Program-made: the position numbers and the translations under genes | Notes under the pieces: model-generated | What the model was told of the DNA's origin: nothing | What the model saw: only the letters and a program-made list of their open reading frames with translations | The model's database searches: none | Shown here: positions 7,697-17,061 of the stretch, piece by piece | How the letters are laid out: each line of letters opens with the position of its first letter | How positions within the stretch are numbered: position 1 is the first letter of the stretch | Assembly: GCA_031261705.1 (NCBI GenBank) | Contig: JAISJD010000044.1 | Location: forward strand, 1 to 24,000 | From: Lactobacillales bacterium | GTDB taxonomy: Bacteria > Bacillota > Bacilli > Lactobacillales > Streptococcaceae | Length of the DNA: 24,000 nucleotides | Reading direction: 5' to 3'

Positions 7697-8659
7697 TTAT
7701 TTTTCTTCTAAAGGCGCCATTCGAGTGGTCATGTAATTTTTTAACCATTCTTCACTTGCTTTTTCGTGAACGCAGTGTCCGTCCACTCGATTGGTCAGAT
7801 AAACGGTTGGTGCTTGCGTGCTTGTTGCGACCACAAAAGAGAAATTCTCAATGTTGGTTGCACAGCCCCATTCCCCTTGAGCATTCATCGCCACCACCGA
7901 TAAATCACCCGCACTGCCTTTACGTTTAAGCAACTGTTTTTCTAAGTGATTGACCGCAGTTTCACAAGCTGCTTGCGGACTCAAGCCGGTATTCATCAAG
8001 TGAACAATTTCATAGGAGATACAACCCTTCATCAAGTCCTCTCCAAGACCCGTTGCCGTGGCTGCCCCCACTTCACTATCCGCATAAAAGCCAGAGCCTG
8101 CAATCGGAGAATCCCCGACACGACCCGCTTTCTTCATAAATAAACCACTTGTCGAAGTCGCTGAAACCATGCTTCCTTGGGTATCTATCCCCACCATGCC
8201 CACTGTGTCATGACCACGATAAGGTTTCATTTCTAGTTGTTCCTCTTCCATTTCCTTCAAGCGATTCTTATAATGAATCTTTGCTCGGTCGGTCAGCATA
8301 TTTTTTCGTTCAAAGCCTTGCTTATGCGCATACTTTTCAGCACCAGCACCGACTAGAATATTGTTCAGCATTTCACCACTTAATTTTTTGGCAATAGAAA
8401 CTGGATTGGCAAAATCATGAATGCCTGCCACTGCTCCAATATCTAAGGTATCTCCGTCCATATATCCAGCATCTAGCTCCACCTGCATTTCTTCATTCGG
8501 CAGACCTCCGTAGCCAACAGATTTATAAAATGGAAAATCCTCTACCGCGCAGATTGCTTTCTCCACTGCTTGCCCAATTTCTCCATTTTCTTGCAATAAT
8601 TGGCTTGCCAGAGTGACTCCTTCTAGTGCCATTGTCCATGTAGCAATCATTCCCCACAT
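7697..8659 (-). CDS. N4-(beta-N-acetylglucosaminyl)-L-asparaginase-like Ntn hydrolase (glycosylasparaginase / Asparaginase_2 family), cytosolic
   Basis: GHDTVGMVGID autoprocessing/nucleophile motif, GRVGDSPIAGSGFYAD and AATATGLGEDLM blocks, closely resembling human AGA as I recall it. GAGGTG lies 6 nt before the ATG at 8659, and the track TTG at 8683 is less likely. No signal peptide. Confidence 0.85.
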   Translation of the reverse strand: MWGMIATWTMALEGVTLASQLLQENGEIGQAVEKAICAVEDFPFYKSVGYGGLPNEEMQVELDAGYMDGDTLDIGAVAGIHDFANPVSIAKKLSGEMLNNILVGAGAEKYAHKQGFERKNMLTDRAKIHYKNRLKEMEEEQLEMKPYRGHDTVGMVGIDTQGSMVSATSTSGLFMKKAGRVGDSPIAGSGFYADSEVGAATATGLGEDLMKGCISYEIVHLMNTGLSPQAACETAVNHLEKQLLKRKGSAGDLSVVAMNAQGEWGCATNIENFSFVVATSTQAPTVYLTNRVDGHCVHEKASEEWLKNYMTTRMAPLEEK

Positions 8660-8689
8660 GCCTTTCACCTCGCTTCTTTCCAATTTCTA

Positions 8690-9208
8690 TTAATAGATAT
8701 ATTTTTCTTTGTGTGTCTGAGTTTGACTGTTTTCCAACACTTCCAATGTCTTACAAATATTTTCCAATGCTGAATTTAAGCCTGCTGCCCCTTTTTTCGG
8801 CATTTTGACAATCGTCACTTTGTCTTTATAGGCTTGAATGACTTCACTACGTTCCTCTGACATCGCACAAACGACCTTCGCTGTTCCATTTTCTTCAATA
8901 GACTCCGCAAGTTCCGCACACATCATGGAAAATTCTTTGTAATCGTATGATGGGCCACAAATCACTGCTTCGACATCTAGTCGTTTCAACATGCCGTTAA
9001 TTTTCCGTTGAACGACTTCTTTATTTTCTTCATAGGTTCCTGTGCCACAATAGATGGTCACAATTAATTGTTGTTGATATTTTTCTAAGAGAGGTTTCAT
9101 CATCACTCCCGGACCTAGTGCTTCTTTTGTTGCAGTCAAAGGGACATGAATATCTTCTTTTGTGCCAACTCCTGCTTGAATTTGATTTAAAATCATTACT
9201 ACTCGCAT
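8690..9208 (-). CDS. GrdB N-terminal-domain-like protein (copy 1), no selenocysteine region
   Basis: 172 aa. MRVVMILNQIQAGVGTKE..YCGTG..VICGPSYDYKEF..IVKMPKKG parallels the GrdB N-terminus (RVVHYINQFFAGIGGEE..ICGD..AGPAFNAGRYG, from memory). GGAGGG RBS, ends with TAA, lies directly downstream of EIIC-1. Confidence 0.75.
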   Translation of the reverse strand: MRVVMILNQIQAGVGTKEDIHVPLTATKEALGPGVMMKPLLEKYQQQLIVTIYCGTGTYEENKEVVQRKINGMLKRLDVEAVICGPSYDYKEFSMMCAELAESIEENGTAKVVCAMSEERSEVIQAYKDKVTIVKMPKKGAAGLNSALENICKTLEVLENSQTQTHKEKYIY

Positions 9209-9244
9209 TTTTTTCCCTCCACTTGTCAGCTTTTTTTGCAGATT

Positions 9245-14888: not shown

Positions 14889-14972
14889 TTTTCTGCTCCA
14901 TTTCACTTCGCATACAGTCGCTACTAAACAGCAAGCTGTAAGTAGGACTAGCAACTTTTTCATTCCTTTTAT

Positions 14973-16280
14973 TTATAAGCTCGCCAAGCGGTACATCGCC
15001 AGCGTATAAATCTCCATATTCTTCAGCAAATCGGCTTCGTTCATCCATTCATCTTCTTTGTGAGCAATCCCCTTTTGCCCAGGAAAAGATGGACCGAATG
15101 CAACGATATTTGGCATAAAGCGTGCATAGGTTGCGCCTGTTGTCGTGACAGGTGTGCCGTCTAGCCCTGTTTCCTCCTCATAAACCTCACTTAATAGGCG
15201 AATGAACGGCGTGTCTTTTGGCTGATTGGTACTCTTCAAACGACGCACTACTTCTAATGTAGAGTGAGGTGGCAGGTGTTGTTCCAAGGCATGAATCACC
15301 GTTTCTTCATTCACCGTTACAGGATAACGAATCGCTAGGTGAAGTAGCATACCCTCCTCCTCTTTTTCTAAAATGACGGGTGTCACGATAAGTTTGCCTG
15401 ACTCTTCGTCTTCAAAAGCAATCCCCAAGCCTTCGCCATAATGTTTTTCGTCTAATGAGTCTGCAAGCCATTCAAAATAGCTTTGTAACGCATTTTTCGG
15501 CAAGAGTTTTGCAAGCTGGTCGGCAAGCATTGTGATCGCATTGACGCCAAGCTCTGGTGCATTGGACGGAGAAGATTTCCCAGAAACCTCAATCGCTGCA
15601 CCGTTCACACTTGTCTTTACATAACTTGAAACATGGTCACGTGCCATGTCGCCCGTGATTTCCCCCAGTTCAGCGAGTTCATCCTTAGATAGAGAAGTCC
15701 GAATTTCAACATTGACAATGCCACGTTCCCCGTAAACCACCGGATATTTCCCGTCAGGCGTGAATCCGAAAATCGGTGGCTTTTCTTGTGCCAAATAAAG
15801 CGGAATATCATGAGAACCGCTCTCTTCATCACTTCCAAAGAGGACGCGAATCGGTGTTTTCGGCACGACACCCAATTCGTTTAGAATTTTCAGACCAAAC
15901 AGGCAAGAAATAATCGGCCCCTTATTGTCTAAAATTCCGCGAGCATAGAGCTTATCCCCTCTTTTCGTTAGAAGAAATGGATCGGATGTCCATTTTTGAT
16001 TGGTCACAGGAACCACGTCCAAATGTCCGAGCACACCGTAATAGTCCTTCGCATCCGCACCAAGCTGTGCATAGCCTACAGCATTCCCCACAATATCGGT
16101 GTCAAGACCATAACCTTGAGCGAGCTGTGTTGCCACTTCAATCGCCTGTTTCGATGCTTGCCCAAAAGGTGCGTCCGCTTGTGCCTCGCCAAGAACACTT
16201 GGCACTTCAATGACGGTCGCTAAATCCTTTAAATAATCGTTCCACTCCTCTCTGATTTTTTCCTTAATTCTTCTTTCCAT
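14973..16280 (-). CDS. M20 family dipeptidase (PepV/Sapep-like)
   Basis: 435 aa with GHLDVVP, ARGILDNKGP and FGSDEESGS metal/catalytic motifs. GGAGGA RBS. Confidence 0.85.
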   Translation of the reverse strand: MERRIKEKIREEWNDYLKDLATVIEVPSVLGEAQADAPFGQASKQAIEVATQLAQGYGLDTDIVGNAVGYAQLGADAKDYYGVLGHLDVVPVTNQKWTSDPFLLTKRGDKLYARGILDNKGPIISCLFGLKILNELGVVPKTPIRVLFGSDEESGSHDIPLYLAQEKPPIFGFTPDGKYPVVYGERGIVNVEIRTSLSKDELAELGEITGDMARDHVSSYVKTSVNGAAIEVSGKSSPSNAPELGVNAITMLADQLAKLLPKNALQSYFEWLADSLDEKHYGEGLGIAFEDEESGKLIVTPVILEKEEEGMLLHLAIRYPVTVNEETVIHALEQHLPPHSTLEVVRRLKSTNQPKDTPFIRLLSEVYEEETGLDGTPVTTTGATYARFMPNIVAFGPSFPGQKGIAHKEDEWMNEADLLKNMEIYTLAMYRLASL

Positions 16281-16332
16281 ACTCTTTCCTCCACTTCCTT
16301 TTGATAAAGCTTTTGTCTTGATAGTTAGAGTC

Positions 16333-17061
16333 TCATTCCCGATTCATACGGACTAATGTATTTTGGAAGGTATATTTATCCGCACGGTAATGCGATTCGT
16401 CATAAAGAATAGGGATTCCTGTCACGGAATAGGTACGTGATTTCGCAAAGAAGGTCGGGCTCCCCACCTCAATCTCGAGAAGTTTTGCTACTTCTTTGGT
16501 CGCAAGAATCGCTTCAATCTCTTGATGAGAATAAGCAATTTTCATGGTTTGCTCGATTAAGCCGAAAATAGAATGCTCAAGCTCTGAAGTCGTCATCTCT
16601 TTGGGTAAAAACTTCCGCCGAATGTAAAGATTTTCCATCGTCATGGGCTCATCGTCCAGATAACGCACCCGTTTGACATGATAAATTTCTTCATTCTCCG
16701 CCGCTTCCAAGGTTTCCCAAAGTTTTTCATGAAAAGGAACCTCACCACTCTCGATAATTTTACTTCTAGTCTTTTTCCCTTGCGCCTCTGCCACTTCAGA
16801 AAATCCTCGAAGCCCAGACTCCCCACTGTGAATTTTTTCTTGATTCATGACATAGGTGCCTCGATTTTTATACCGCACCAAGAGTTGTTTTTGAATCAGA
16901 TATTCGATTGCTTTTCTTACCGTGAGCCGACTCACTGAAAATTCCGCCGCCAGCTCGTAATCTGACGGTAGGCGTTGTGAGGAGACATATTTATGCTCTT
17001 GGATTCTTTCCTCTATCGTTTCTGCCACTTGTAAATAAATCGGTTTTTTCTCTTCCTGCAT
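16333..17061 (-). CDS. GntR-family transcriptional regulator, HutC subfamily (winged HTH + UTRA effector domain)
   Basis: 242 aa. LPSDYELAAEFSVSRLTVRKAIEYLIQKQLL is the HTH, followed by a UTRA-like C-terminal domain. GGAGGGG RBS. Only 16 nt separate it from the yitT stop. Confidence 0.9.
   Translation of the reverse strand: MQEEKKPIYLQVAETIEERIQEHKYVSSQRLPSDYELAAEFSVSRLTVRKAIEYLIQKQLLVRYKNRGTYVMNQEKIHSGESGLRGFSEVAEAQGKKTRSKIIESGEVPFHEKLWETLEAAENEEIYHVKRVRYLDDEPMTMENLYIRRKFLPKEMTTSELEHSIFGLIEQTMKIAYSHQEIEAILATKEVAKLLEIEVGSPTFFAKSRTYSVTGIPILYDESHYRADKYTFQNTLVRMNRE

Follow-up and report, generated by a model that had tools for sequence, protein, structure and literature searches.

What use would a lactic acid bacterium have for a block of genes in which sugar transporters, peptidases, an amidase and relatives of a selenoprotein follow one another? 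This question is raised by a stretch of 24,000 nucleotides, hereafter the window, that covers positions 1 to 24,000 of contig JAISJD010000044.1 (assembly GCA_031261705.1) of a Lactobacillales bacterium from the family Streptococcaceae. On its minus strand, a GntR-type regulator is accompanied by an M20 dipeptidase, two enzyme IIC components (EIIC1 and EIIC2) of the phosphotransferase system (PTS), two GrdB-like proteins (GrdBL1 and GrdBL2), two proteins of peptidase family M42 (M42A and M42B) and an amidase of the glycosylasparaginase (AGA) type. An initial annotation, made from the letters alone, had proposed that the block salvages glyco-amino acids or glycopeptides and had recognised no described pathway in it. 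From the genes present and the analogy with characterised loci, it appears likely that the block is a repressor-controlled operon for salvage of N-acetylglucosaminyl-asparagine (GlcNAc-Asn), the N-glycoprotein stub, and an expanded relative of the ega locus of Enterococcus faecalis. The claim of novelty fails because the core pathway was already published, in 2020 for alf-2 of L. casei (PMC6960285) and in 2023/24 for ega of E. faecalis; NCBI models also exist for the regulator and the GrdB-like protein. What remains of interest is the expanded form, with its link to YitT, the conserved extra module of EIIC2, M42A and M42B, the tail of the EIICs and the GrdB-like protein.

Organization of the locus

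Nine minus-strand open reading frames were found at the positions and in the order initially annotated, and both Pfam and NCBIfam agree with their families. Starts were picked by the ribosome-binding site (RBS), which puts the amidase start at ATG 8659, that of M42A at GTG 11823 and that of EIIC2 at 14825. Neighbouring genes are then separated by 52, 147, 3, 49, 13, 107, 36 and 30 nt, confirming the earlier range of 3-147 nt. The nine genes are therefore present as described, but the unit has a tenth co-directional gene, YitT/DUF2179, which stops 16 nt short of the GntR start. The unit is taken to be larger than nine genes because YitT sits behind the sole operator and promoter found. The genes, in transcription order, are:

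17078-17983, minus strand: YitT-family membrane protein with DUF2179 C-terminal domain (Pfam YitT_membrane 1.2e-50, plus DUF2179), first gene of the unit
16333-17061, minus strand: GntR/HutC regulator of the LSA1692 (EgaR/AlfR2-like) subfamily (NF041547 323.3 bits, cutoff 275; Pfam GntR and UTRA)
14973-16280, minus strand: M20 dipeptidase, Sapep/PepV-like, counterpart of EgaP/PepV (TIGR01887 393.6 bits, cutoff 208)
13488-14825, minus strand: EIIC2, Lac/Cel family, M42-linked orthogroup (PTS_EIIC 3.5e-60; TIGR00410 396, cutoff 236)
12954-13484, minus strand: GrdBL2, selenoprotein B homologue, N-terminal domain only (NF041545 241, cutoff 175; PF07355 positions 2-162 of 347)
11837-12904, minus strand: M42B, degenerate M42 paralogue, probable pseudo-peptidase (Peptidase_M42 8.6e-63)
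10726-11823, minus strand: M42A, intact M42 (TET-type) aminopeptidase (Peptidase_M42 2.1e-91; GTG start, RBS GGAGG)
9245-10618, minus strand: EIIC1, Lac/Cel family, AGA-linked orthogroup (PTS_EIIC 9.6e-62; TIGR00410 398, cutoff 236)
8690-9208, minus strand: GrdBL1, selenoprotein B homologue, N-terminal domain only (NF041545 212, cutoff 175)
7697-8659, minus strand: predicted cytosolic glycosylasparaginase, counterpart of EgaG/AsnA2, 320 aa from ATG 8659 (Asparaginase_2 5.5e-63)

The paired genes share 46% (EIIC1/EIIC2), 36% (GrdBL1/GrdBL2) and 31% (M42A/M42B) identity, and such low values indicate old paralogues and no recent duplication. An alternative EIIC2 start at ATG 14963, which would give a lipoprotein-like MKKLLVLLTAC, was rejected: it has no usable RBS, while ATG 14825 has GGGAGG and matches the start of EIIC1. 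The frame between 14826 and 14963 is open upstream of EIIC2 but absent from orthologues, and the extension is probably a chance open frame.

Amidase

In a sequence search of the PDB, the best match of the amidase was the Elizabethkingia glycosylasparaginase (3e-56, 194 bits), as compared with about 116 bits to isoaspartyl peptidases and plant-type asparaginases and about 69 to taspase. T152 (in HDT|VG), T170, R180, D183, T203 and G204, numbered from ATG 8659, align one-to-one with the Elizabethkingia enzyme; the autoproteolytic HDT site with its Thr nucleophile and the Arg, Asp, Thr and Gly residues that bind the Asp moiety are kept. W11 and F13 (Elizabethkingia numbering) form an aromatic pair, which we take to be sugar-contact residues of that enzyme; the Trp is kept in the window amidase and the Phe is replaced by Met. 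NCBI names the identical amidase sequence N(4)-(beta-N-acetylglucosaminyl)-L-asparaginase, and further proteins under this name are 72-75% identical to it; an NCBIfam match to beta-aspartyl-peptidase is sub-threshold (120 bits, cutoff 567). The amidase was examined for a signal peptide and has none. On the PDB ranking, the conserved residues and the lack of a signal peptide, the enzyme is of the glycosylasparaginase type and predicted to be cytosolic, as the initial annotation had it (an AGA-type N-terminal nucleophile (Ntn) hydrolase).

Conserved neighbourhood and its two modules

Whether the genes belong together was addressed by the neighbourhood survey that the initial annotation had recommended. 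Seventeen GrdB-like proteins were aligned and one genome per GTDB species was scanned, which gave 233 relatives; the best 80 of the 233 GrdBL loci were kept, along with as much as 10 kb of flank at either end, and every window protein was scored against them. The gene set recurs across Firmicutes and in two metagenome-assembled genomes (MAGs) of Leptotrichiaceae. The taxa include Lactococcus, Streptococcus, Vagococcus, Enterococcus and several Lactobacillaceae, as well as many Clostridia (C. difficile among them) and Erysipelotrichia. In the 48 loci with full flanks, an EIIC is found in all 48, the amidase in 43, M20 in 36, EIIB in 36, EIIA in 24, the M42 pair in 21, GntR in 16 and YitT in 12. 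Of the 84 GrdBL genes, 69 directly follow a Lac/Cel EIIC gene and another 6 directly precede one. Clustering of the open reading frames, together with Pfam, revealed other recurrent neighbours: a PRD/Mga-type regulator (35 loci), an RDD membrane protein (32) and CutC (30), and more rarely a sigma-54 activator (11), a MupG-like protein (10), aspartase (10) and YdjC (6). An alpha-L-fucosidase lies near the metagenomic relatives L083 and L084. Most of the annotated neighbours (fucosidase, MupG-like, aspartase, YdjC) fit catabolism of N-glycan-core remnants. Like CutC and the RDD protein, DUF7916 recurs next to the amidase, EIIC and GrdBL genes, but only in the metagenomic loci L081, L083 and L084, which are outside the 80-locus count.

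The two EIICs differ in the company they keep. Among EIIC1-like EIICs (n=22), M42 genes accompany none and AGA accompanies 20, whereas the EIICs that are at least 66-67% identical to EIIC2 (n=18) have the M42 pair in 17 cases. The split is clean, and the window joins two old modules, EIIC1-GrdBL1-AGA and EIIC2-GrdBL2-M42B-M42A. The latter stands alone in many Clostridium genomes, and it also occurs as part of loci of the ega kind in Vagococcus fluvialis, Enterococcus phoeniculicola and Companilactobacillus. No locus with two EIIC-GrdBL pairs was seen among the 80, which makes the composite arrangement unusual. A large GrdBL cluster (P0019/P0024) was considered as the E. faecalis locus and rejected, being a gut-metagenome contig with a PRD-type regulator instead; the plasmid collection searched held no E. 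faecalis ega copy.

Regulator, operator and transcription unit

The regulator passes the cutoff of NF041547 ("GntR_LSA1692"), and its operator is common to Enterococcus and Lactococcus loci; PGAP gives the same GntR_LSA1692 name to the regulator of the ega-type locus of E. gilvus. The operator (AGTCTATACAAAATAGTATATACT, 18149-18172) lies upstream of YitT and contains two palindromic AGTATATACT-type boxes, 14 nt start-to-start. When the 80 loci were scanned for the two-box pattern, 16 sites turned up where shuffling predicts about 1.1, and the 8 loci that hold them all bear GntR; by class, the operator was found in 8 of the 17 loci with GntR against 0 of the 63 without. Fifteen of the 16 sites are 37-215 nt upstream of a YitT, GntR or AGA gene, and within the 24-kb window the pattern occurs once. 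Enterococcal loci carry two operator regions, in agreement with the two ega transcription units. Together with the type of the amidase and the match to E. faecalis ega, the GntR_LSA1692 assignment supports well the substrate class put forward initially, GlcNAc-Asn or glycopeptide salvage. The elements at the ends of the unit and inside it are:

18139-18176, minus strand: promoter-like hexamers of the -35 and -10 kind, TTGAAG (18176-18171), TATACT (18154-18149) and TATTAT (18144-18139), overlapped by the operator
18090-18103, minus strand: weak, putative cre-like (CcpA) site TGAAGTCGAGCACA in the 5' leader
10639-10682, minus strand: perfect 17-bp hairpin with no U-tract in the 107-nt gap between M42A and EIIC1, at the module junction (-23.8 kcal/mol; z = -4.46; 0/200 shuffles equal)
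7634-7694, minus strand: intrinsic-terminator-like long hairpin followed by UUUCUUUUUU (U-tract), end of the unit (z = -3.9; 0/200 shuffles fold as well)

The gene upstream of the unit has its own terminator at 18242-18215, and a scan of the internal gaps between the block genes found no promoter-like site. The block is accordingly read from these patterns as what may be a single transcription unit of ten genes, from YitT through the amidase, of about 10.5 kb. The hairpin at 10639-10682 could serve in transcript processing or stability, or act as a partial terminator; an Rfam search of the window found no known RNA element.

Several short repeats were seen in the leaders. The 12-nt core GAAGTCGAGCAC is present upstream of both YitT and EIIC2 (the EIIC2 copy at 14888-14877), and it resembles at 12 of 14 positions what we take to be the consensus of a catabolite-responsive element (cre). 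Moreover, GCACGACAAC precedes both EIIC genes. Together, these leader motifs fall at 18090-18103, 14871-14888 and 10700-10709, and both EIIC genes have the RBS context GAAGAGGGAG[G/A]ATTTACAATG.

As for YitT, it directly precedes GntR in L004 (Pseudolactococcus reticulitermitis) and in the Enterococcus loci L051, L055 and L073; of the 48 full-flank loci, 12 have it within 10 kb. Distant homologues (about 30% identity) recur beside Clostridia and Erysipelotrichia loci. In L004, YitT and CutC are transcribed away from each other, with the operator region between them. A literature search on YitT function returned nothing relevant.

EIIC transporters and their PTS partners

Both EIICs were initially called ChbC-type. 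They do belong to the Lac/Cel family (Transporter Classification 4.A.3) and its lacE subfamily, being above the TIGR00410 cutoff, but they miss the equivalog cutoffs for cellobiose (TIGR00359: EIIC2 396, EIIC1 398, cutoff 434.45) and for chitobiose (NF007634: 193 and 191, cutoff 760). With E. coli ChbB and ChbA as tblastn probes, checked against MG1655, no EIIB or EIIA was detected in the whole 24 kb, and the block has no kinase, glycosidase or deacetylase reading frame, as first annotated. The EIIB gene of an ega-type locus is thus lacking here, and loci from Lactococcus, Lactobacillus, Latilactobacillus and Companilactobacillus likewise have none.

The two transporters have a common mark at their C-termini. 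EIIC2 ends in ...EEELSFDDLIIEDL (codons 13488-13580) and EIIC1 in ...TEEMLSFDDL (codons 9245-9340). A tail of this acidic kind, in which a [LI]-x-[FL]-D-[DE]-[LIF] repeat (e.g., LSFDDL) occurs once or twice, is found in all 79 GrdBL-adjacent EIICs of the 80 loci whose C-terminus was captured. It is absent from six control Lac-family EIICs (E. coli ChbC, Listeria and Priestia CelB, E. faecalis GenB, Borreliella CelB and the second EIIC of L066). The EIIC of the ega-type locus of E. gilvus has the tail though that locus has no GrdBL; the tail is therefore a mark of the EIIC subfamily and not of GrdBL presence. For the same reason, the idea that the tail is a docking site for GrdBL is weakened and was dropped.

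GrdB-like proteins

GrdBL1 and GrdBL2 (172 and 176 aa) both pass NF041545 ("GrdB_like_no_Se"). The initial designation as GrdB-like is upheld in this sense, with only the N-terminal half of the GRDB model covered (PF07355 positions 2-170 of 347). Alignment with full-length relatives shows that the short form ends at about residue 170, so the selenocysteine (Sec)-bearing C-terminal half is absent, and these are not full-length selenoproteins B (GrdB/GrdF/GrdH/PrdB, about 430 aa with the Sec half). The N-terminal motifs NQ..AG.GG, CGD and GP.FN are common to short and full-length forms; MPKKGG.GL is the short form's own. Searched against 1.84 billion representatives, the GrdBL profile gave 572 clusters at E <= 1e-3, of which 32 reach <= 1e-30. 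True members of the GrdB type come out near 1e-18 with this profile, with lengths of about 350 aa or 420-490 aa at full length; the entries of about 350 aa could well be gene calls that stopped at the selenocysteine codon.

The AlphaFold2 model of GrdBL1 (predicted local distance difference test 92.7) has a flavodoxin-like alpha/beta domain. Foldseek against the PDB gave no GrdBL1 match above a template-modelling score of 0.5, the nearest being the succinyl-CoA synthetase beta C-domain and CheY-like receivers, and a PDB sequence search found no GrdBL relative. Exact-match lookup of the GrdBL1 sequence returned no record, and a literature search on GrdB-like proteins nothing relevant. An alignment position with an invariant Cys or His was not found in the 85 short forms; C54 and C84 are each conserved in 91%. 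Two roles were considered and rejected. The database name suggests an oxidoreductase, which is unsupported, as the entire Sec/Cys-bearing C-terminal half is gone. A substitute for EIIB is contradicted by the lack of an invariant Cys or His and of an EIIB-like fold match, and by the true EIIB in most loci (GrdBL and a real EIIB are together in 59 of 80). In the secondary-structure string, conserved Gly-rich loops and lysines appear to stand at the C-terminal ends of strands, a position typical of an anionic-ligand site. A role as a ligand-binding accessory is favoured by this position, as a speculation from the model.

In nature GrdBL can be dispensed with, because its gene is a pseudogene in E. 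faecalis OG1RF and is absent from an otherwise complete ega-type locus on E. gilvus pCR1A. In Clostridium baratii, C. nitritogenes and relatives (L025, L028, L071 and L044), a second GrdBL gene lies behind a sigma-54 activator, directly upstream of the amidase and M20 genes and with no EIIC of its own; L044 is too short to show the amidase and M20 genes. GrdBL thus accompanies catabolic enzymes too, and not the transporter alone. Three fusions, P0066 (GrdBL-AGA), P0227 (EIIC-GrdBL) and P0206 (GrdBL-MupG), come from single metagenome contigs and look like read-through or lost stops, deletion or chimeras; they were given no weight.

Peptidases

The three proteins initially counted as metallopeptidases belong to the expected families, but one of them has probably lost the means to act as such. 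The M20 gene, directly downstream of GntR, encodes the metal-ligand motifs (GHLD, LDNKG, SDEESG, IAHKED). M42A, whose best PDB match is the B. subtilis YsdC-like structure 1vhe (2e-86), keeps all seven residues of the ligand and catalytic set HDDEEDH, and so do 28 of its 28 full-length orthologues. In M42B the set reads HDNEHDN, with three of the seven metal or catalytic residues lost, and in 30 of 31 M42B orthologues it is broken in varied ways. Although of the M42 fold family, M42B is very probably inactive as a peptidase. It is always encoded just upstream of an intact M42A, and this constant pairing suggests an active/inactive hetero-oligomer. The two genes look like a conserved peptidase/pseudo-peptidase pair. 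A literature search on M42 in PTS operons returned nothing relevant.

Proposed working of the operon and alternative explanations

The proposed scheme starts from what can be seen directly, i.e., gene families, synteny, co-occurrence, the operator, conservation or loss of catalytic residues and the homology link to characterised loci. A repressor of the GntR_LSA1692 type would occupy the two-box AGTATATACT operator over the sole promoter, and a glyco-amino acid would free it from the operator, as may be supposed by analogy with EgaR and AlfR2. EIIC1, relying on EIIA and EIIB from other parts of the genome, would import and 6-phosphorylate GlcNAc-Asn. The cytosolic Ntn hydrolase would then yield aspartate and 6-phospho-GlcNAc-amine, which would decay to GlcNAc-6-phosphate and ammonia. 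The anciently diverged EIIC2-GrdBL2-M42B-M42A module would most likely import Asn(GlcNAc) with neighbouring residues still attached. M42A, probably as a hetero-oligomer with M42B, and M20 would cut these forms back to free glyco-amino acid, which is what the amidase needs as its substrate. The GrdB-like proteins would be ligand-binding accessories, neither oxidoreductases nor EIIB substitutes. In the simplest reading, EIIC1 takes the free glyco-amino acid and EIIC2 the forms with neighbouring residues, which M42A and M20 would remove. We infer what each EIIC transports, the trimming of peptides and what YitT, GrdBL and M42B do. The mechanism of the initial proposal is largely right for the core, and its trimming by M42 and M20 is plausible.

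Several points weigh against this scheme. The window amidase has Met at the position of the Elizabethkingia sugar-contact residue F13. With no EIIB or EIIA in 24 kb, PTS function depends on genes outside the window. The amidase is absent within 10 kb of the M42-containing loci L011, L016, L026 and L066, hence the substrate of EIIC2 could differ. The one-operon reading is built on pattern scans; a strong hairpin stands between the modules, and an internal promoter is possible. Finally, a pepV mutant of L. casei showed no phenotype on the glyco-amino acid 6'FN-Asn (PMC6960285), which leaves the involvement of the peptidases unproven.

The loci without an amidase point to another division of labour, in which the outer genes are the GlcNAc-Asn system and EIIC2-GrdBL2-M42B-M42A serves a different sugar-amino-acid or sugar-peptide conjugate and merely shares the operon. 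Glycated (Amadori-type) peptides, chitobiosyl-Asn or MurNAc-peptides would be candidates, the last with MupG-like 6-phospho-muramidase homologues in 10 related loci on the side of this explanation. The modules are also separate orthogroups with different partners, and it is general knowledge that E. coli has M42 genes in PTS operons of unknown substrate. However, the amidase lies within 10 kb in 16 of the 21 full-flank loci with the M42 pair, and the EIIC2 type shares the FDD tail and the GrdBL partner with the AGA-linked type. Furthermore, it is the sole EIIC of ega-like loci with the same regulator in V. fluvialis (L009), E. phoeniculicola (L054) and Companilactobacillus (L041, L050). This explanation, together with its candidate conjugates, is considered possible but rather unlikely. 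Salvage of beta-aspartyl (isoaspartyl) peptides or D-Asx-bridged muropeptides, which the initial annotation had offered as an alternative, is disfavoured more strongly and is very improbable. It would require the Ntn hydrolase to be an isoaspartyl peptidase. The Asparaginase_2 family does include such enzymes, the sub-threshold beta-aspartyl-peptidase match (120 against 567) is of this kind, and the locus is dominated by peptidases; yet the amidase scores 194 bits with glycosylasparaginases and 116 with isoaspartyl peptidases and keeps the N-terminal Trp of the sugar site. Its N-terminus is not of the HGGAG type, which presumably sets it apart from isoaspartyl peptidases. The transporters are sugar PTS EIICs, a fucosidase adjoins the locus in L083 and L084, and orthologous loci of the ega and alf-2 kind are tied by experiment, in the accounts available, to GlcNAc-Asn. 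That the locus is an ordinary cellobiose or chitobiose PTS locus with the peptidases and the amidase as unrelated neighbours, as the automatic name "celB" would have it, is hardly credible. The best NCBIfam matches of both EIICs are indeed cellobiose IIC models, but both remain under the cellobiose (434) and chitobiose (760) equivalog cutoffs, no phospho-beta-glucosidase or deacetylase is encoded in the locus, and the six control EIICs, from cellobiose, gentiobiose and chitobiose loci, have no FDD tail. The co-occurrence of the non-transport genes with this EIIC subfamily in dozens of genera contradicts such an explanation.

The second module can be read in a more ambitious way. EIIC2-GrdBL2-M42B-M42A would be a PTS-type uptake system for short glycopeptides, and the active/inactive M42 hetero-oligomer a committed cytosolic trimmer. 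GrdBL would be a hitherto unrecognised ligand-binding accessory of the [LI]SFDD[LI]-tailed EIIC subfamily, in which the N-terminal domain of selenoprotein B is put to use again, devoid of redox chemistry. Taken jointly, these proposals are possible but rather unlikely. If they are true, import of peptide conjugates would be demonstrated for a PTS for the first time, and the N-terminal domain of GrdB-family proteins, so far an orphan, would gain a function. Breakdown of N-glycoproteins universally leaves GlcNAc-Asn as the last remnant, and its use supports gut and meat-associated lactic acid bacteria. The window is chiefly another member of the published core pathway, and its interest lies in the widely conserved extra parts: the second EIIC orthogroup with the M42 pair, GrdBL, the EIIC tail and YitT/CutC/RDD, which span at least Lactobacillales, Clostridia, Erysipelotrichia and Leptotrichiaceae. 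They provide handles on the uptake of glycopeptides as opposed to free glyco-amino acids, on M42 enzymes in PTS operons and on the non-selenium half of selenoprotein B.

Neighbouring genes

Directly downstream of the block, at 4807-7514, an ATP-binding cassette (ABC) transporter is encoded (ABC_sub_bind lipoprotein, BPD_transp_2 permease and ATPase) with its own promoter-like site at 7591-7563. Homologues of its binding protein and permease adjoin YitT in a Lachnospiraceae locus (L062), possibly by coincidence. At 22401-23888 there are five ChW repeats, DUF5776 and a C39-like peptidase domain, in a fragment with no visible signal peptide that is unrelated to the block.

Comparison with known systems

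The closest characterised system is the enterococcal glycosylasparaginase locus ega, OG1RF_10933-10939 of E. faecalis (Combret et al., Res Microbiol 2024;175:104169, as presented in PMC11549559 and PMC11976118). According to these accounts, use of GlcNAc-L-Asn by E. faecalis through a Lac/Cel-type PTS and EgaG was shown experimentally (PMC11549559, PMC11976118), and the title of the study by Combret et al. ties it to infection. As outlined in PMC11549559, OG1RF_10933 and 10934, a GntR regulator and a dipeptidase, have their own promoter, and the locus continues with EgaG, EIIB, EIIC and a GrdB-like pseudogene, with the EIIA CelA1 encoded elsewhere; the last gene is taken to be GrdB-like because PMC11549559 cites the GrdB paper for it. 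The window is alike in having GntR with M20, a predicted cytosolic glycosylasparaginase, a Lac/Cel EIIC followed by a GrdB-like gene, and at least one PTS component encoded away from the locus (in ega, the EIIA CelA1). The surveyed Enterococcus loci (L039, L051, L055, L073) have the ega gene order, GntR-M20-AGA-EIIB-EIIC-GrdBL, and the same operator boxes as the window. Unlike ega, the window has no EIIB, two EIIC-GrdBL pairs and not one, an additional M42B/M42A pair and a leading YitT; it is apparently one unit under one operator, whereas enterococci have two units. Both GrdB-like genes are intact in the window, in contrast to the OG1RF copy, a pseudogene, and the window proteins are only about 36-58% identical to their enterococcal homologues.

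The alf-2 locus of L. casei BL23 encodes the GntR regulator AlfR2, PepV, the cytosolic self-processing glycosylasparaginase AsnA2, the major facilitator superfamily (MFS) permease AlfH, the fucosidase AlfC, the ROK kinase SugK and AsdA (Becerra et al. 2020, PMC6960285). It resembles the window in the GntR regulator, the PepV-type M20 enzyme, the cytosolic glycosylasparaginase and a glyco-amino acid of the N-glycan core as the substrate, and its authors also proposed trimming of glycopeptides by PepV (PMC6960285). It differs by the MFS permease, fucosidase, kinase and AsdA, with no PTS EIIC, GrdB-like gene or M42. Clusters of asnA2, pepV, alfR2 and PTS genes were drawn for L. gasseri, L. johnsonii, L. 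curvatus and L. sakei (PMC6960285). In L. sakei, LSA1689 (M20), LSA1690 (EIIC), LSA1692 (GntR) and LSA1693 (asnA2) feature in a 2011 transcriptome paper, and asnA2 is reported to be induced in meat fermentation, in work cited in PMC6960285. The L. curvatus copy has a GrdB-like gene between the GntR and EIIC genes. Like the window, LSA1689-1693 and the L. curvatus equivalent combine AGA, GntR (LSA1692, the namesake of NF041547), a GrdB-like protein, EIIC and a Sapep M20 enzyme with no EIIB (loci L060/L067); unlike it, they have a single pair in reversed order (GrdBL then EIIC), no M42 pair and adjoining C1 (PepC) peptidases.

PTS operons with M42 genes are found in E. coli as frvABXR, sgc and ypd/fry (frvX, sgcX, ypdE), with PTS components of the fructose and galactitol types. 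To our knowledge, they have no glycosylasparaginase, GrdB-like protein or degenerate M42 partner. FrvX-named M42 structures turned up in the M42 comparison, and by analogy the coupling of a PTS to M42 in E. coli would imply a sugar-amino-acid or sugar-peptide substrate. The closest of the surveyed loci is that of Pseudolactococcus reticulitermitis Rs-Y01 (L004), in which YitT-GntR-M20-EIIC1-GrdBL1-AGA follow in the same order at 55-75% identity (EIIC 75%), with an operator-like site upstream of YitT. L004 has a divergent CutC that is absent from the window, and what the window has beyond it is the four-gene EIIC2-GrdBL2-M42B-M42A insert.

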